Below, one piece after another: positions 9,831 to 18,454 of a stretch of DNA of 64,000 nt. The stretch lies in contig CBDDIJ010000003.1 in assembly GCA_965228855.1 (NCBI GenBank), positions 3,456,001-3,520,000 on the forward strand, read 5' to 3'. Source of the DNA: Candidatus Obscuribacterales bacterium. GTDB taxonomy: Bacteria; Cyanobacteriota; Vampirovibrionia; Obscuribacterales; Obscuribacteraceae. Position 1 is the stretch's first letter. Each line of letters starts with the position of its first letter. The position numbers were made by a program, and so were the translations under genes. The notes beneath the pieces are model-generated. The model had not been told where the DNA came from. It saw only the letters and a program-made list of their open reading frames with translations, and searched no databases.

Positions 9831-11408
9831 CTATTTCGCAACGGAGCGACCATCCATCGCCGTTAACAGGTCTGGACTTTGAAGCAAACGCAAGGGCTGT
9901 TCTTGAATTTCAAGTTGAACAATGTCCTGACCGTCGGAAACGCCGAGTTCCTGAAATTTGCGGGCCGTAACAAGCACTCTTGTCTCCATTGAGCCAACAG
10001 CCTTGTTGTAGGCGTCGACAGACTTGTCGAGTCCTTTGCGAATCTCAGAGAAGTGTCCGGCCATAATACGAATTCGCTCGTATAAAGTCTTTCCGAGCTG
10101 ACTTATTGCCTGGGCATTTTCGGCCAGCTTCTCTTGCTTCCAGCCATAGGCGACGGCGCGGAGTAATCCGATAAGCGTGGTAGGCGTCGCCAAGATGACT
10201 CGTTGCTCCACGCCGACCTCGATTAGCGATGGATCCTGCTCCAGAGCAGCACTAAAGAAGGTTTCACCCGGTAAAAACAGTACGACGAATTCGGGCGAGC
10301 AGCCAAACTGCTCCCAGTACGCCTTACTCGAAAGTTTCGTCAGATGAGTACGAATTTGTCGGGCATGGTCTTTGAGACAGGCGATGCGGGTTTCGTCGTC
10401 GCGAGCCTCGAGCGCATCGAGATAGGCTTGCAATGGCGCTTTGGAATCAACAATTACGGTTTTTTGTCCAGGAAGGCGAACCAACAAATCGGGGCGAATC
10501 ACCGAATCCTCGGTCGTGATTGTCTTCTGCTCATAAAAGTCACAATGTTCGAGCATGCCTGCCATTTCGACAACTCGCTTCAGTTGAATCTCGCCCCAAC
10601 GTCCTCTCACAGTTGGAGCCCGGAGGGCGCGAACTAAATTTTGCGTTTCCTGCTGCAGGTTAGTCTGACCATTCGCCAGTGCACCAATTTGCTCCTTAAG
10701 CCCGGAGTAAGCGTTTATCCGTTCCTTCTCCAGATCCTGTATCTTCGTGTCGACGCTCAACAACGACTCCTTTAATGGCTTGACGAGTTCGTCGATAGAT
10801 TTTTGTCTTAGCTCGAGGTCGGTTTTCGCTCCCTCTTGGAACTTCTCCAGATGAGTCTTAGCCAGGTCTAAAAACGCCTGATTGTTAGACTTTAAAGCCT
10901 GGGAAGAGAGAGCTTGAAATGAATCAGTCAGTTGCTTCTGCGCTTGATCGATAAGCTTCAACTTCTCCTCGGCGGCTTGTCGTTCTTTCTCTCGAGCAGT
11001 TTCCAGAATCGATATTTGTTGTTTTAAAGCAACGACCTCTTGCGAAAACGAAGTTACCTTTTCATCGCGAAGGCGCACGTCCTGCTGGAGTTGATCGATT
11101 TTCGAATTGCGCTCTTCGGACGCAGCAAGCCGCATTTGCAATTGTGATACCAGCGAATTCCTTTCCTGCAATTGTTCGTAGTTGAGTGTATTTTGATTCT
11201 TAAGTTCATCGTACGAGCGCGAGGTTTGCGACTTAAGTTCCTCGATACTTCTATCTCGCTCTTCGAGTCGCGACTTAAGCGTTGCTTGCTCTGTTTTAAA
11301 CGCACTAAGATTACGTTCCAATTCGGCAGCCGACCTGCTACGAAAAATCAGCCAGGCAATCAGCGCTCCAACAGCGATACCGACAATTAAGCATGCAACT
11401 AATTCCAT
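9831..11408 (-). CDS. rmuC: DNA recombination protein RmuC
   Basis: N-terminal TM helix and coiled coil; [34 protein letters not shown] and [10 protein letters not shown]. Confidence 0.93.
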
Positions 11409-11435: not shown

Positions 11436-14400
11436 CTAAGCTGACATCTGGAATCCGTTTTTCGTCGTGACGGACGACTCGAACTGTCCTCTGCCAGCTT
11501 CAACAATCTGGCAAAAGAAACTAATCAGTTTCATCTGGGTTAAGGAGGTACAGGGCGTCTGTAGAAGGTCCGGACTTCCAACAACAAATGCCAGGGTCTT
11601 CGCTCTGGATATTGCCACATTCAGGCGACTTCTGCTGAACAGAAAATCCAGCCCTCTTGCAGAACCGCTTCCCTCGCTAGCACACATCGATAGTATCACG
11701 ACTGGTGCCTCCTGTCCCTGGAACTTATCTATAGACGCAACGCGCGCACCCGGAATCCGAGAGGCTATCTTTCGGACCTGCATGTTATATGGACTGACTA
11801 TAAGAATGTCTTTCATGGACAATACATTAATTGCTCCCGTCTTATCAGAAACACAGCAACGCAGAAGAGTATTAACCAGTTCTTCGATTGCATCGACCTC
11901 TTCATCGCTGGCCTGGCTGTTGCCACGATGCGGAACCGGACACCAAACGATTCCCGCTCGCTTCTGGAATCCGGAATTCAGCTGACCAGGCGGAATGAGC
12001 ACCTGATTAGAATTCTCTTCGTGCGCGACTAAACGAGAGTCATAGATTGCTGAGGATATAACCTCACAGATATCAGGATGCATTCGGCGGGTGACAGATA
12101 GAAAAATTCCCATGCTATCGGATATGGTGGCACTATCCTGTAGAAGATACTCAAGACAGGATAATCCACTATCTCCAGGATGAGAGCCCTCCGTGGGCTG
12201 CTCGAGCTGCATCTGATCGCCAAGCAACACAAGATTTCCCGTGCTTGGGCTCATTGCGGCTACGTTCGCGAGACAAACCTGTCCGGCTTCATCAACAAAG
12301 AGATAATCAACCATTCGAATAGCAGCATCCGAGCTAAACAACCAGGCGGTACCAGCAATCAAATTAAACGAATCCGGCTCTTCGTCTTTGAAAAATTTTC
12401 CTGATCCGCGTATGCGACGAACACCCGGCATATACGTTTGAGGTCCAGAGTCGGCTCCCGAAGGCGCAATCTTGGCGCCCCTCAGCGGAACGCCCTCTTC
12501 ACGAGCAACTTCGGCCACCTTTTCCAACAAATTGTCTATCGCTTTGTGAGAATTTGAAGTGATTCCGACGCGCTTTCCCTGACGCAACAATTCGACAATA
12601 GTATGGCTTGCAGTGTAAGTTTTGCCAGTTCCGGGCGGTCCCTGAATAGATAAGCAGGTCTCTTGCATACGACTTACAGCACTGACTACGGATTTCACAT
12701 CTCTAGCGTCTGCAATTGCGATCCCAACGGCCCGACCTTTGATGTTAGGTTCTTCCCGAAAGAGGAGGTCAGACAAACACTGCGGAATCCTTTGTCCCTG
12801 AGCCCAGGCGGATACCACCCGAAATATGGAACTCGCTATTATTTTGCTATCTACGAATTCATCCGGGATCAAAGAAATTTCTTCCGGAGGAACTGGTTTG
12901 CTTTTCCCCAGTAAGATCACAACGCGCCCCTTCCGGCGATCGAGAGAGGCTATGCGCGTGCTTTCCGCATTATGCGCGAACAGAACGGAGTCACCTTCTT
13001 TCATCTTTGTGTCTTGACTTGGATCAAACGAATACTCATAGCCGAACGAACGATTTATTTTAACCGGCGGATTTCTTACCCACGTCAGCTTTCCGAGACA
13101 ATCCAGATCGTCGTACAACTCATTGTCGGTCAGACTCATCCTCTCAAACCGACGCCACCACATCGGCTTATATTCACGGCGATGAAATTCAAGCAGACCG
13201 GCAAGCAGCTGTTGAACGCGCTTAGTCTCAAGATCAGCGATTTGCTCAGACGCTTTCATTAAATCAGCGGCAAGTGCGCCTGCAGGCATCAGATCGCGCA
13301 CCACAGGCGATGCCTCGATCTGAGGTCCAGAGAACTCGATACGATTCTCCTTCTGGCGGGCACGAAGCCATACCGCCAGTTGCTGCGTAGAGACACAATC
13401 CAACTCGTTGTAGTCGCGAATCTCTTTTAGAATTGGCGATTCTTGCCAGGTCAGGCCATCCTGGCATTCGATCCATCGCTCGTAGAAAACAACCGAATCA
13501 GTAGCTTTTGCTACAGTGCCACTTCGTTTGCCTCTATAGAGATGTTCTACATACTTAATCGAGTAAGACGGCTCTCCTACGCGCAGCCCCTGACGGACGA
13601 CTTGGAACAGGTCGACGAAAACCCTGTGCCTGAGGAGTTCGTCGACCTCTTCCATCCTCGTTGAATGACGACCCGCTAGTCGTCTAACAGCAGATACTTC
13701 GTAAGCCGCATAGTGATAGATATGCATTCCTGGGTCATGGCGCCAGCGCTCGTAGACCCAGTCTATGAAATTCTCGAAAGCTATCTTTTCTTCAGCTCGA
13801 TCGTGTGCCCACCAATCTTTAAATTCAATTGAATCACCGAGTTCGTAAACCACTCCCCAGAGATATTCCAACCCGCCTGACATATGAGGATATCCTTCCA
13901 TGTCAAAGTAGACGTCATTGAATGAAGGTGGCGGCAGCATTGCGAGCCCCTTGCCCGGAATTACAGGGAGCACTTCAAATGTAGTTTCACCGGCCATCTT
14001 CGAACGATTTTGAGCTCTGGCCTGTTGCTGGAGAGTATCGAACGTCTCTCGCGTCATTTTCGGAATCGATGAGGACTCGGAATTTGCGAGTTGAGTCAGA
14101 GTGTTAATTCCGGCATTCAGTAAGCGGTCGATCTGACTCTGCCGAATATTAGCGACTCGTGAGAGATGGTCTCTGTCTTCCAGAAATTTTTCCGAAACAG
14201 TCTTCCAACGGCTATGGGAACTAACAGTCCAGTCTTCTGGTGGATGGTCTTTTGAAAAACGTCCCTGAAACTCGAGGAATGAGTTCTTGAGGCGGAGATA
14301 GAGGTGATGATATTCGTGAGTACGAAATTCTTTTTGCGCGAAATCACCAAGCACCACTCTAACTGACCCTGGTAGTCGCCCTTGAATGCACTCAAGCATT

Positions 14401-14861
14401 TCTGCATAACAGCAGAGCTGGATAATGAAATGGGGTTTTGCCTTCTTCGAGAGTTTCGTGTCCCAGACTTCGTAGTGGAAATCTCCAAGCTCAGACGCAC
14501 CATCCACTTTGATGAGGAAATCGGAAAAGCCTGCAAACTCATCGGCTTGAAGAAATCCCTGATAGATGACCTCTCGGCCGTCCCGCATAGCTGCAATTGT
14601 TTCCAGTCGAGCAGATTCGCTTTTACTATGAATTTCCGCAATGTCGTAACCTTCTTTCCGTAATTGTGTGAGAAACGCTAACTCATGCGTGTTTCCGTGC
14701 TTGGCGAGAATCTCAAGACTCTCGTCACGCTCATCAGGCTTGACTTCATCCGGGTATTCAACAGAATATCGCTCCATCCAAGAGTCGAACTGTGAGTCCA
14801 TGAATGTAACGAGGTCGGACGGCGAATAAACCAGCGGACCGTCTGCTTTCATCCTGCGCAT
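11436..14861 (-). CDS. TM0106-family RecB-like nuclease fused to RNase H-like and SF1 (Upf1/DNA2-like) helicase domains
   Basis: YSPSDL start; PD-(D/E)XK motif GFSDFL...YEVWDTKL...QLCCY; YFDMEG, HIYHYAAYE and YNELDC (RNase_H_2-like); QGPPGTGKT, VDEAGQ, GDQMQL, RRMHP, PYNMQV, DKFQGQEA and RLNVAISRAK. Confidence 0.9.
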   Translation of the reverse strand: MRRMKADGPLVYSPSDLVTFMDSQFDSWMERYSVEYPDEVKPDERDESLEILAKHGNTHELAFLTQLRKEGYDIAEIHSKSESARLETIAAMRDGREVIYQGFLQADEFAGFSDFLIKVDGASELGDFHYEVWDTKLSKKAKPHFIIQLCCYAEMLECIQGRLPGSVRVVLGDFAQKEFRTHEYHHLYLRLKNSFLEFQGRFSKDHPPEDWTVSSHSRWKTVSEKFLEDRDHLSRVANIRQSQIDRLLNAGINTLTQLANSESSSIPKMTRETFDTLQQQARAQNRSKMAGETTFEVLPVIPGKGLAMLPPPSFNDVYFDMEGYPHMSGGLEYLWGVVYELGDSIEFKDWWAHDRAEEKIAFENFIDWVYERWRHDPGMHIYHYAAYEVSAVRRLAGRHSTRMEEVDELLRHRVFVDLFQVVRQGLRVGEPSYSIKYVEHLYRGKRSGTVAKATDSVVFYERWIECQDGLTWQESPILKEIRDYNELDCVSTQQLAVWLRARQKENRIEFSGPQIEASPVVRDLMPAGALAADLMKASEQIADLETKRVQQLLAGLLEFHRREYKPMWWRRFERMSLTDNELYDDLDCLGKLTWVRNPPVKINRSFGYEYSFDPSQDTKMKEGDSVLFAHNAESTRIASLDRRKGRVVILLGKSKPVPPEEISLIPDEFVDSKIIASSIFRVVSAWAQGQRIPQCLSDLLFREEPNIKGRAVGIAIADARDVKSVVSAVSRMQETCLSIQGPPGTGKTYTASHTIVELLRQGKRVGITSNSHKAIDNLLEKVAEVAREEGVPLRGAKIAPSGADSGPQTYMPGVRRIRGSGKFFKDEEPDSFNLIAGTAWLFSSDAAIRMVDYLFVDEAGQVCLANVAAMSPSTGNLVLLGDQMQLEQPTEGSHPGDSGLSCLEYLLQDSATISDSMGIFLSVTRRMHPDICEVISSAIYDSRLVAHEENSNQVLIPPGQLNSGFQKRAGIVWCPVPHRGNSQASDEEVDAIEELVNTLLRCCVSDKTGAINVLSMKDILIVSPYNMQVRKIASRIPGARVASIDKFQGQEAPVVILSMCASEGSGSARGLDFLFSRSRLNVAISRAKTLAFVVGSPDLLQTPCTSLTQMKLISFFCQIVEAGRGQFESSVTTKNGFQMSA

Positions 14862-14889: not shown

Positions 14890-14921
14890 AGCCTACGAAA
14901 TCAAGCTGCGAAATATCTGCA
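14890..14921 (-). promoter_or_regulatory. candidate WYL-dependent promoter/operator of the nuclease-helicase-rmuC operon (distal 6 bp displaced to 16961-16966 by the intron)
   Basis: The minus strand reads TGCAGATATTTCGCAG-CTTGATTTCG-TAGGCT, then AGGAG and ATG at 14861. With the intron removed it matches 18068-18106 at 30 of 39 positions. Confidence 0.6.
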
Positions 14922-16960
14922 GTGTCGACACGAGGTCGATTAAATGAATAGATTTAATAATCTCAGAGCACCTCCTTGCTCTGTCTCCACGTAAAAGACT
15001 CAATGAGTTCGCCCGCGTCGCAAGTAAGTGATGAACGCGATCAATAGAAGGGCACGAAAGGTCCGAAACTCTTAGCCACAATAGAGTGAAGAAGGACCGA
15101 GGGGAGACCGGCATGGTCAGGTGTGCACGAAGCACGAACACGAATCATCTTAAGTTCCGTCATTTTCGAAATGGTGAAAGTGGCTGTATGCACCATGCCC
15201 AAAAGGGAAGCGGGTTGGCTGATTGGTTTGCAGAGCAATCAGCAGGGAGGCTACACTCCCGCCGGAATACAGATGGGACCTAAACCGGTCGTTAGTCATT
15301 TAGTCGGAACGTGGTAAACCTCATGGGCTCTTGCTTTTGTTCAAGCGAGCAACCAACGCGTAAGCTGCGGCTCATTGCCTAGGAGGTAACGGATTCTGGA
15401 AAAAGCGAACGGTTCGCTGTAATGGCGGACACAGGGCAATACCCACGCTGAAAGGCGGCTGACTTCCAGAACGTGTCCCGCGAAATTACAATGAGAGGAA
15501 TTCGAACAACCGTGAAAGATGGAACCACACTTGGTATCGGAGCGGATGGAAAGCCTTTAGATTGGAGTCTCATGCCATGGGATTCAATTGACAAGTCTAT
15601 CAGAAAACTGAGACAGCGTATATTTCGTGCCATACGCGAAGGTCGACTGAATCAGGCGCGAAGCCTGATGAAACTGATGCTTCGCAGTTACTTGAACCTG
15701 CTGGATTCTGTGCGCAGAGCTACGCAAAAGAACAAAGGCAAAAAAACCGCTGGAGTCGACGGCGTAACAGCTCTAACATCGAAAGCAAGATGGAAGTTGA
15801 CCAGACAGATGGTAATGCAGACACCATGGACGGTGAAACCGACCAGACGTATTTACATACCGAAGTCAGGGAAACCCGGACAAAAACGTCCGTTATCAAT
15901 TCCCGCCCTGCGAGATCGGGTAGCACAGGCGATGATGAAGAACGCACTGGAACCCTGCTGGGAAGCTCGATTTGAGTCAACCAGCTACGGTTTTCGCCCT
16001 GGAAGAAGTCTCCACGATGCCGTTAGGCATTGCTGGGAATTATTCAAGGCGAATACGAAACGTCCGTGGATTTTAGACGCGGATATCCGTAGCGCGTTCG
16101 ACAAAATCTCACATGAACATATCCTACAAGAGCTCGGACCGGTTCCGGGACGAGATCTAATTAGGCAATGGCTCAAGGCAGGTTACATGGAGGCGGAAGT
16201 CTTTCACACCACGGACAGTGGCACACCTCAAGGAGGCATCATATCCCCGTTGCTTTTGAACATCGCCCTGCACGGCATGCAAAAAGCGCTGGGGAGCGCG
16301 TACGGATATGTCCGATACTCAGATGACCTCATTGTATGTGCACGAACCCGAGATGAGATCGAAGCTGCTAAAACGCGTATCCAAGAGTGGCTGAAGCCGC
16401 GCGGATTGGAATTGCACCCAGAGAAGACAAGAATTGTGCACATTGAGCAAGCACAAGCAAGCGACAGCGGAAGAGGTTATACGATACCTCAACCCCAAAC
16501 TTCGAGGATGGGCGAACCACTATCGACGAGCAGTAAGCAAAGAAGTCTTCGCGTACGTGTCTCACCAAGTTTGGCAGATGCTCTGGAGATGGTGCCTTAG
16601 AAGGCATCGGAAAAGAGCAAATACTGGGTGCGTAACAAATACTTTGGCTCTCCGAAAACGAAGAGCTGGAGATTTCAAGCGCACACCGATGACGGCGCCC
16701 TTTATCTTTATGACGTTAGCTCGACAGGAATCGAGCGACACATTAAGGTGCGAGGCGACGCCAGCCCGGACATTCCAGATCTGCGAGACTACTGGCATGC
16801 ACGTATCGAAGAATGTCGAACGTATTACCGCTCGCCGAAACAAGTAACAGTAAAAGCCCTGCTAAACGCTGGGTTGGATGCGCGAGCCGAATGATGGGAA
16901 AACTATCACGTTCGGTTCTAAGAGGGGCTGGGTGCGGTGACGCACCCATGCCTACTCGAC
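14922..16960 (+). mobile_element. group IIB intron (CL-like class) with defective RT ORF
   Basis: 5' end GTGTCGACACG. Stem GCTGATTG/CAATCAGC (15218-15243) presents EBS1 TGCAGA, complementary to the upstream exon end TCTGCA (14916-14921). GGAACGTGGTAAACC DI motif. DV GAGCCGAATGATGG-GAAAA-CTATC-AC-GTTCGGTTC (16884-16918). DVI with bulged A at 16954; the intron ends ...CCTACTCGAC. Confidence 0.9.
15473..16894 (+). pseudogene. group II intron reverse transcriptase/maturase, disrupted
   Basis: RVT_N-like KLRQRIFRA, GKKTAGVDG, RPLSIP, SYGFRPGRS, LDADIRSAFD, GTPQGGIISPLL and YSDD. After HPEKTRIVHIE the GFDFLG (RT7) block is missing and domain X (LNPKLRGWANHY) continues in another frame. A second 1-nt shift occurs near 16608. 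No HNH domain. Confidence 0.88.
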
Positions 16961-17033
16961 GTCGTGCGAACGAAAGATTAAAACTGCGTTTAATGACGGT
17001 GTAACTAGCTCCCGATCATGTAGTTTAAGGACC

Positions 17034-18005
17034 ATGAGTACCAAACTAGAGCGAGTTCTGGCAATTGACGCGGAAATCTGTCGTGGCGGATTTCCCGGAG
17101 TTCAGCACCTGTGCCAGAAATTTGAGATTTCCGAGCGAACACTCCACGACGACATTCGCTACCTGAAAGACCGCCTGGCCAGAGAAATAGTTTTCGACCA
17201 CACAAAAGGCGGATACTTCAACAGCACTCCAGATAAGCGTTTGCCGTCCTTTGAATTGTCCAGCGGTGAAATCTTTGCCCTGACACTTGGAAAGGAGATG
17301 CTATCTATATATACAGGTACATCCTTTGAGGCCACTCTTCGCTCCGCACTGGAAAAAATTTCTGAGCGCCTGCCGGAAAAGGTCAATGTCGACCCGGAAG
17401 AAATTAAATCGGTAATCCGATTTCGAGCCAGCGCAATCGTTCCCTTGAGCGCGAAGCTGTTTAGTGAAATGAATAAGGCATGCGATCTGGAGCAACAGAT
17501 CGACTTGACTTATTTTGCGGCAAGCAAAGGCGAAACCACCTCGCGCATAATTAATCCTTACTGCGTGTTGCACGACCGCGGCACCTGGTATGTGGTGGCA
17601 TACTGCAATTCGCGTAAAGCGCTTCGCATGTTTGCGCTGCATCGTATTAAGGACTACAAGATTCTCGACACAAACTTCGAGCCAATGCCGACTGAGGAAC
17701 TCACAGCATGGATTGATGCGGCATTCCAGATCGAGCATGGCGAGCGTACCTACCAGGTGATCATCAAGTTCGCTGCGCACTCGGCAAGATATATTAGAGA
17801 ACGGTCCTGGCATCCGCAGCAAGAGCTTGAGGATTTTGAAGACGGCAGTTGCAAGTTGTCTTTCCCAGCGGCAAGCCTGGACGAAGTTTTTCGCTGGCTG
17901 GCGCCATATGGTTCCGACGCTATTGTGATGGAGCCGCCGGAACTTCGGAAGCTGGTGATCGATGCGGCTAAGGAAACGCTCGAACAATACAACGTCTCCG
18001 TTTAA
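17034..18005 (+). CDS. WYL-domain transcriptional regulator (wHTH-WYL-WCX, PafBC/DriD-like)
   Basis: N-terminal HTH (LCQKFEISERTLHDDIRYL), WYL core (RIINPY...WYVVAYC...RMFALHRI) and WCX-like tail (RSWHPQQ...WLAPYGSDAIVMEPPELR). AAGGA RBS. Confidence 0.93.
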   Translation: MSTKLERVLAIDAEICRGGFPGVQHLCQKFEISERTLHDDIRYLKDRLAREIVFDHTKGGYFNSTPDKRLPSFELSSGEIFALTLGKEMLSIYTGTSFEATLRSALEKISERLPEKVNVDPEEIKSVIRFRASAIVPLSAKLFSEMNKACDLEQQIDLTYFAASKGETTSRIINPYCVLHDRGTWYVVAYCNSRKALRMFALHRIKDYKILDTNFEPMPTEELTAWIDAAFQIEHGERTYQVIIKFAAHSARYIRERSWHPQQELEDFEDGSCKLSFPAASLDEVFRWLAPYGSDAIVMEPPELRKLVIDAAKETLEQYNVSV

Positions 18006-18067: not shown

Positions 18068-18105
18068 CACGACTGCGAATATTTCGCAGTCGTGTTTTGT
18101 AAGCT
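18068..18105 (+). promoter_or_regulatory. 27-bp palindromic operator plus -10 hexamer (candidate WYL-activated promoter)
   Basis: CACGACTGCGAA-TAT-TTCGCAGTCGTG has perfect 12-bp arms. TAAGCT lies exactly 10 bp after TCGCAG. No canonical -35 at the expected spacing. Confidence 0.7.
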
Positions 18106-18205
18106 GTTTATACAAGGTCGGAAATGCACTGAAGGATTGCAAGGACGGTGGATTGCTGACTGAGACCTGAAGACCGTTGCTGATGATAGAAAGGGATTGG
18201 GACCG

Positions 18206-18454
18206 ATGTTTCTAACGCCAGAGCAATTGCAACTAATACAAGATGCACTCGAATATTCGTGTACTGCTTTGTCGGACGAATTCGAGCAGAACAAACACAG
18301 CCGTGAAGCTGACGAAATTCAGCGCTCCGTTTTGGTATACGGCAAACTGCGAAAGTACAACAAGCTTTTAAACGACATTCGAAAGAGCCTGCCTGCACCC
18401 CCTACGATTCGGGAGAACAATGTTCTTGTTCTCGCCGCTAGCAGAGGGAGGTAG
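18206..18454 (+). CDS. small hypothetical helical protein (82 aa), candidate WYL target
   Basis: ATG at 18206 after AAGGGA; begins MFLTPEQLQLIQDALEYSC. Flanked by the palindromic promoter and a terminator. Confidence 0.65.
   Translation: MFLTPEQLQLIQDALEYSCTALSDEFEQNKHSREADEIQRSVLVYGKLRKYNKLLNDIRKSLPAPPTIRENNVLVLAASRGR

Follow-up and report, generated by a model that had tools for sequence, protein, structure and literature searches.

The specialised group II introns described to date use terminators, start and stop codons or other mobile elements as targets. In the genome of a Candidatus Obscuribacterales bacterium, a group II intron lies between a helicase-nuclease gene and a gene for a WYL-type regulator, within a palindromic box which a preliminary description of this DNA had taken for an operator. 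The locus raises the question of how the intron came to lie in the box and whether boxes of this kind are its target. The best explanation, and a probable one, is ordinary RNA-guided homing that was retargeted onto part of an operator family; the homing mechanism would be standard and the target class unusual. An operator would be a new kind of target, which is repeated, conserved, intergenic and, here, rebuilt by the first bases of the intron.

The analysis was performed on a window of 64,000 nucleotides, i.e. the whole stretch of DNA that was presented, and the features of the locus are collected in Table 1. G000 denotes the genome of the window, G001 to G007 are related genomes, and the letters X, L and P stand for sequencing runs, loci and proteins, respectively. 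Published work is cited for the accessible parts of the respective papers.

Table 1. Coordinates of the features at the intron locus, counted from the first base of the window.
Feature	Position	Strand	Remark
RNase_H_2-nuclease / SF1 helicase (AAA_11, AAA_12) gene	11436..14861	-	box A promoter points at the gene
Putative -10 hexamer TAGGCT, 8 nt from box A, leftward promoter	14890..14895	-	putative function
Box A in its present form: 18 bases of exon, then GTG of the intron where GTC stood	14904..14924	.	
Intron target: IBS2a 14908, IBS2 14909-14913, IBS1 14916-14921	14908..14921	+	12/12 Watson-Crick pairs with the guides
Group II intron, probably IIB1/CL-like, no endonuclease	14922..16960	+	5' end GUGUCG
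EBS2a (C15161) and EBS2 (TTTCG, 15164-15168)	15161..15168	+	
Id3 hairpin with EBS1 (TGCAGA, 15229-15234)	15218..15244	+	
RT/maturase gene of the intron	15491..16894	+	broken in the window copy
Domains V and VI	16882..16960	+	bulged A at 16954, 3' end AC
3' exon: displaced right arm GTC, conserved ATTAA element, WYL gene upstream region	16961..17033	+	
HTH-WYL-WCX regulator gene, probable binder of the box	17034..18005	+	Pfam WYL and WCX
Box B, within palindrome 18068-18094	18071..18091	.	TTCGCA mismatches EBS1; empty
Putative -10 hexamer TAAGCT, 8 nt after box B	18100..18105	+	
Small ORF, 85 aa, no Pfam family	18197..18454	+	box B promoter points at the ORF

Location and boundaries of the intron

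The intron at 14922-16960 and its boundaries are real. Domains V and VI with the catalytic AGC triad and the bulged A are present and match the Rfam family RF00029 (Intron_gpII) over 16882-16960 with 55.5 bits against a cut-off of 40, and the RT/maturase reading frame in domain IV contains the Pfam domains RVT_N, RVT_1 and GIIM. The insertion is precise and empty alleles exist. In the sister genome G007, whose WYL protein is 100% identical to that of the window, the box is uninterrupted, and contigs of the sequencing runs X15 and X16 jump from 14921 to 16961, skipping exactly 2039 bases. The continuous box that had been predicted for intron-less alleles was found intact in G007 and in the X15 and X16 contigs, and the intergenic region of 133 bp that had been calculated by removal of the intron is the one that G007 carries. 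Confirmed as well were the elements on which the preliminary description had relied, namely TCTGCA at 14916-14921, TGCAGA at 15229-15234 in the hairpin GCTGATTG/CAATCAGC, GTCGTG at 16961 and the palindrome at 18068-18094; the joined exons agree at 20 of 22 positions with site B when the latter is read as its reverse complement. The splice boundaries are independently supported by the empty alleles of G007, X15 and X16 and by the covariation of EBS1 described below.

In G000 no other copies were found (one BLASTN and one TBLASTN match), and the intron is the sole group II intron detected there. Searches for viral contigs with the intron gave 0 by pattern and 0 by protein, and there were no RNA runs among the listed sequencing runs that carry it. 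The named records sharing its 5' end belong mostly to Candidatus Obscuribacter(ales) or Melainabacteria. The C-terminal part of the helicase-nuclease resembles PADLOC MkoA. Directly downstream of the helicase-nuclease gene follows an rmuC gene (9831-11408) in the same orientation, which may be transcribed from the same promoter.

Guide pairing and intron class

EBS2a, EBS2 and EBS1 pair at 12 of 12 positions with the exon positions -14, -13 to -9 and -6 to -1, and of the 23 related introns in which the hairpin is seen, 22 show covariation between the EBS1 loop and the six bases at the end of the 5' exon. The earlier identification of EBS1 was correct; EBS2, EBS2a and the broken intron-encoded protein had been overlooked. 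A by-eye search for EBS3 gave no position covarying with +1. Among solved proteins, chain 6ME0_C, the TeI4h maturase, comes nearest, with an E value of 5e-103 compared with 1e-35 for GsI-IIC, and introns of cyanobacterial plasmids show 48-52% protein similarity to the protein of the window intron. A 6-bp EBS1, a 5-bp EBS2 and an EBS2a-IBS2a pair at -14 are given as the signature of IIB1/IIB2 (CL) introns in the accessible text of PMC8643678, and the guides of the window intron have the same layout. Judged from guide pairings and protein similarity, the intron is probably IIB1/CL-like. None of the 120 closest proteins has an annotated HNH/endonuclease family.

The 5' end, GUGUCG, is one base longer than the consensus GUGYG and departs from it; relatives begin with GUAUCG, UCAUCG or UUAUCG. 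These unusual longer ends are set by the EBS1 pairing, and an intron 5' end departing from the textbook consensus is a by-product of this work.

IIC introns at terminators likewise use a repeated intergenic element as target, and attC sites are another target of this class. The likeness to such structure-recognising introns that had been drawn for this locus is wrong because the 12 base pairs account for recognition completely. IIC introns recognise hairpins with short pairings (PMC12584367, accessible part), whereas the window intron makes 12 sequence-specific pairs; a short EBS1, a missing EBS2 and a hairpin target were not found. IIC-like recognition of the palindrome, through a hairpin or terminator structure, is extremely improbable. 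Site B does score as terminator-like and comes after the WYL gene, but EBS1, EBS2 and EBS2a pair in full, the closest solved protein is a IIB-type maturase (6ME0), the insertion is located inside the right arm and not after the stem, and the most perfect palindrome, site B, is empty.

State of the intron-encoded protein

In comparison to contigs of four runs, the window copy reads YSDD instead of YADD, about 113 nt are absent near 16443-16447, and one base is absent near 16610; the single-base loss may be an assembly error. An intact form of 505 aa (P0093, cluster of 11) is 98% identical over 318 aa. Due to the fact that its RT/maturase gene is broken, the window copy is probably immobile, and the active form probably resides in other strains.

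The box and the WYL regulator

The box type is a 21-bp palindrome, GACTGC-N9-GCAGTC. It was found 22 times in 15 of 19 loci with a WYL homologue, whereas size-matched random stretches of G000 gave 0.26 on average and never more than 2, and in 15 of 18 genomes with a WYL orthologue against 3 of 23 without. When G000 was scanned with a matrix trained on other genomes, eight intergenic sites ranked top, seven of them at 20 bits or more (1.4 with shuffled matrices), and box B had the highest score of all (27.9 bits). The box counts are partly circular and too high, since the search pattern was taken from the box of the window itself and the genomes are related. The matrix was needed, as a plain spacer scan for GACTGC-Nx-GCAGTC gave no enrichment at a spacer of 9.

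A TAnnnT hexamer is located exactly 8 nt from the box end at 23 of the 24 boxes around WYL orthologues, with no other offset occurring more than twice, and at five of the eight top G000 sites; the proximal box on the cysS side (see below) has AATAAT or GATAAT at the -10 offset. The box overlies the -35 region, and no -35 consensus was evident at the boxes by eye. As in WYL operators, the palindrome is conserved, adjoins the WYL gene and co-occurs with it; as at PafBC/DriD-type sites, the spacing to the -10 hexamer is fixed and a -35 consensus is missing. The best solved relatives of the WYL protein are PafBC and PafC, and its HTH is assigned from the family, without a Pfam match. DriD is a WYL activator that binds a 20-bp palindrome, also in its own promoter, and PafBC promoters have no -35 element (PMC9186387, accessible part). 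The present system is like these in its WYL-WCX protein, in a palindromic site of about 20 bp (located before the own gene also in DriD) and in promoters without -35 (PafBC). It differs in box sequence and in its candidate regulon of restriction-modification, Wadjet JetA, SspB and helicase-nuclease genes. BrxR-type WYL proteins, which are linked to defence, are often repressors according to the accessible text of PMC13622015.

The genes beside the boxes encode a type II methyltransferase, restriction proteins, Wadjet JetA, SspB, a YhcG nuclease and the helicase-nuclease. Because the boxes flank WYL orthologues, precede defence genes and keep the fixed -10 spacing, a putative activator site is suggested. 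The box is most likely bound by the neighbouring WYL protein, which would activate defence and DNA-processing genes. A further by-product is a candidate regulon of the WYL protein in an uncultured lineage, comprising defence genes behind promoters of the activator type. We consider it very unlikely that the box is the operator of another regulator (LexA-like or one of three other WYL proteins), a reading which would be compatible with the homing model. G000 has four WYL genes, and the link between WYL protein and box is predicted. On the other hand, the boxes flank orthologues of the WYL gene 17034-18005 even when the neighbours change and co-occur with this orthologue across genomes, no matrix match of at least 15 bits was found near the other three WYL genes, and the genes beside the top eight boxes carry no recA or lexA annotation.

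Candidate regulon boxes (G000 C3:31017, C3:1744035, C5:206055, C5:1379011 and C2:1316667; L164, L168, L172 and L173) precede type II R-M genes, an orphan methyltransferase gene, Wadjet jetA, sspB and a second nuclease-helicase gene. A gene for a protein of 173-177 aa (L031:7040-7558; L180-L186) with CxCG and CxxC motifs and no Pfam family is conserved across the genus, where it is preceded by one to four boxes. Behind box B lies the small, unannotated gene at 18197-18454, and a similar, conserved gene follows the WYL orthologues. Near-identical boxes are present repeatedly in G005 (L165, C191:42, C229:42, C124, C215 and C273), several of them at contig ends, as if carried on a multi-copy mobile element.

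Effect of the insertion on box and promoter

The cut is located 3 bases inside the promoter-distal end of the box, and the GTC of the box is replaced by the intron's own GTG in G000 or GTA in G003. At the sequence level, the box is regenerated by the first bases of the intron, with a matrix score of 23.1 bits in G000 against 23.5 bits in the empty G007 allele. The -10 hexamer and the helicase gene stay in place, while the WYL gene loses its adjacent box. Since the intron's GT(G/A) stands in for the lost GTC and leaves box, -10 hexamer and gene intact, the cost of insertion may be low.

Adaptive coupling would go further: selection would have fitted the intron to the WYL regulon, the stress behind the activation of the regulator would also open the target or favour mobilisation, and the GT start and an ATTAA motif would be promoter-preserving adaptations. 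We regard this as unlikely. The relatives mostly start with U and both box-associated 5' ends with GT, but L084 starts with GTATCG at a non-box site and group II introns ordinarily begin with G. The intron puts ATTAA 14 nt from the box, within the native range (12-14 nt, found in 14 of 23 native promoters); the motif, however, is part of a domain I stem across the intron lineage whatever the target, and its placement is therefore probably a lucky fit. All five observed 3' flanks begin with GTC, which is more than one EBS3 pair accounts for, and related WYL proteins sense ssDNA (PMC9186387 and PMC13622015, accessible parts). Against this, both genome copies at box A (G000 and G003) are decayed.

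Indications that more than one box is occupied

In G003, a different species, a 518-nt intron remnant with correct ends was found at the orthologous helicase-WYL site, i.e. at box A. Its sisters G001 and G004 are empty and stand on a separate branch of the WYL tree from G000 and G007, so that two separate gains are a simpler account than a single gain followed by three losses or more. What the remnant shows is homing to no more than one conserved site.

A second box is indicated by contigs of X15 and X17, which come from different studies; the junction is seen in contigs, not in raw reads. In both contigs the intron 3' end, after GTCG, matches 28 of 30 bases to the right of box G000:C2:1316728, which is located between cysS and a 173-aa gene, is non-orthologous to box A, has a perfect IBS1 and is empty in G000 and G007. 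Among the contig pieces listed for X15 and X17, none had a 5' junction at this box. In the X17 contig the 5' flank is that of the helicase side and the 3' flank that of the cysS side, as the result of either an assembly path through a repeat or a rearrangement. The 3' flanks at box A and at the cysS-side box share GTCG only, so junction-spanning words should exist in the reads. Contig depth, which is no copy number, was higher for the intron than for the flank in X17 and X19. Two distinct boxes only were identified with the intron.

Perfect 12-base guide matches in five genomes numbered 16, comprising 10 boxes, 2 degenerate-box-like sites and 4 unrelated sites, against 5 matches of a control pattern. 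G007 has exactly two, and these are the two sites seen occupied. G000 contains 1285 sites with IBS1 plus G and 78 guide matches with one mismatch, so that a second insertion in a box would be unlikely without such specificity. Perfect box targets are empty in G001, G004 and G007, genomes without a full intron, and in G002, G005 and G006 the box at the orthologous position carries TCCGCA and no insertion. The expectation of copies between TGCA and GTCG within boxes was borne out in so far as the 3' end is joined there at a different box (X15 and X17), whereas site B was never found occupied. For the equivalent position of site B, pairing with EBS1 at 5 of 6 positions had been pointed out; site B is a poor target in G000, where TTCGCA mismatches EBS1, and is empty even in G003, where it is perfect.

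Two further 3' flanks (L008 and X19) begin with GTC, and neither was placed on a box. The X19 flank is absent from 8 genomes of the genus, from G000 and from the examined loci. The piece at about 1400-1800 of L008 (G003:C292) is a 5'-truncated fragment of the same variant, intergenic and with about 100 nt of foreign 3' flank; the flank has no match to a box, and the orthologous loci in G001 and G004 are without the inserted piece. A junction pattern lacked specificity, as it matched 100 of 104 genomes and a control gave a similar outcome, and the four exact matches checked among those listed were not intron starts.

Homing to the helicase-WYL site only, with the second-box junction produced by rare ectopic insertion, by rearrangement or in assembly, would agree with both complete insertions being at the orthologous site and with the second box being known from a 3' junction in contigs. 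We nevertheless think that this is not likely, as the junction is located at the exact homing position of G007's only other perfect guide match, recurs in two studies and offers four shared bases, too few for an assembly chimera.

According to the favoured model of retargeted homing, an endonuclease-less IIB1-type intron would retrohome through ordinary RNA-DNA pairing, presumably by reverse splicing and possibly primed at the replication fork. The sequence read by the guides (EBS2a C, EBS2 UUUCG and EBS1 UGCAGA) is GCGAAA-NN-TCTGCA, the core of one box variant. Entry would take place at the box edge furthest from the regulated promoter and antisense to the regulated gene, and the repetition of the operator would let the intron home to several copies. 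Its orientation is antisense to the adjacent genes at both sites. A sigma-70 scan for a promoter upstream of the intron gave 3 candidates, no more than expected by chance (mean 4.1). The two sites are located in opposite GC-skew context, so that a lagging-strand bias is not seen. It is conceivable, although doubtful, that the operators of a defence regulon activated by the WYL protein have become the special target of a sub-lineage, which would land at the outer box edge and rebuild the box so that the host promoter survives, and whose spread would be tied to the ssDNA stress that activates the regulator.

Relation to known introns

With the CL/IIB1 introns of Thermosynechococcus elongatus (TeI4h) and EcI5 the window intron has in common the closest solved maturase, and twintrons occur in both groups. 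Intron families of T. elongatus diverge through EBS change and retrohome to new sets of sites (PMC2882425, accessible part), and the clade of the window intron likewise retargets by EBS change. It differs from these introns in the missing endonuclease domain, the one extra 5' base and the regulator-box target. Avi.groEL and EcKTE56.groEL are IIB1 introns whose insertion rebuilds a functional signal, UAA being replaced by UAG, and in this tie to a rebuilt signal the window intron resembles them. In the accessible part of the same source (PMC12584367), the groEL lineage has start or stop codon targets, a monophyletic habit and a 5'-subterminal insertion of 300-700 nt. The window intron, in contrast, is intergenic, has no such insert in the domain I alignment, targets a predicted protein-binding box and shows the habit in one sub-lineage. 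RmInt1 is also a mobile intron without endonuclease (PMC8914252, accessible part), with a different target; a lagging-strand bias is not visible here. The literature search, outside which most subscription journals lay, found no group II intron targeting a transcription-factor operator and no such introns in Melainabacteria.

The wider intron lineage

A pattern search gave 47 rows, from which seven chance matches (L058, L059, L061, L063, L065, L067 and L091) were dropped by eye, leaving 40 related 5' ends. Two of these are located in boxes and the rest in transposon-end-like repeats, another repeated motif, introns and genes. The proposal that the lineage homes to an operator family does not hold at this level: with 2 of 40 ends in boxes, operator targeting is a trait of one variant. 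Box targeting would be a recent niche of one sub-lineage in an often-retargeting clade. The clade offers a natural retargeting series, in which a few EBS changes shift the intron among transposon-end repeats, genes, introns and candidate operators.

Eight of the 40 ends lie in a tandem GCGAATT-type repeat beginning with TGTGAC or TGTTAC, and two further ends look similar. The repeat is located beside integrase-core and AAA genes in L079 and L060 and near istB in L096, and the tandem repeats may, as this suggests, be transposon ends. The domain I tree leaves most of its inner branches open (10 of 17) and neither supports nor excludes an origin of the box variant from the transposon-end group, whose targets look similar. 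A motif of the type GGC-N-CGG-N-GATAGCG is shared by 11 of the 40 ends at unrelated places.

Several minor observations were made on the sister introns. Those in L079, L060, L069, L072, L074, L086, L092, L096 and L111 are located in tandem repeats resembling transposase-binding sites of Tn7/IS21-like ends, and L003 is inserted into a similar sequence with reversed orientation. A multi-site sub-family with the EBS1 CGCUAU and weak EBS2 pairing, whose many unrelated loci have a GGC..GATAGCG-like motif in common, comprises L055, L057, L064, L070, L071, L080, L081, L085, L087, L090 and L095. The endonuclease-less clade (L002-L005 and L069-L112) has the 5' end that is one base longer, mostly with a U start, and L119 has the standard length. 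Copies starting with U end in GC and the G-start copy of the window ends in AC, which may be a covariation of the first and the penultimate base. Moreover, nested or tandem group II introns (twintrons) were found in L076, L090, L109, L005/L016, L070 and L085.
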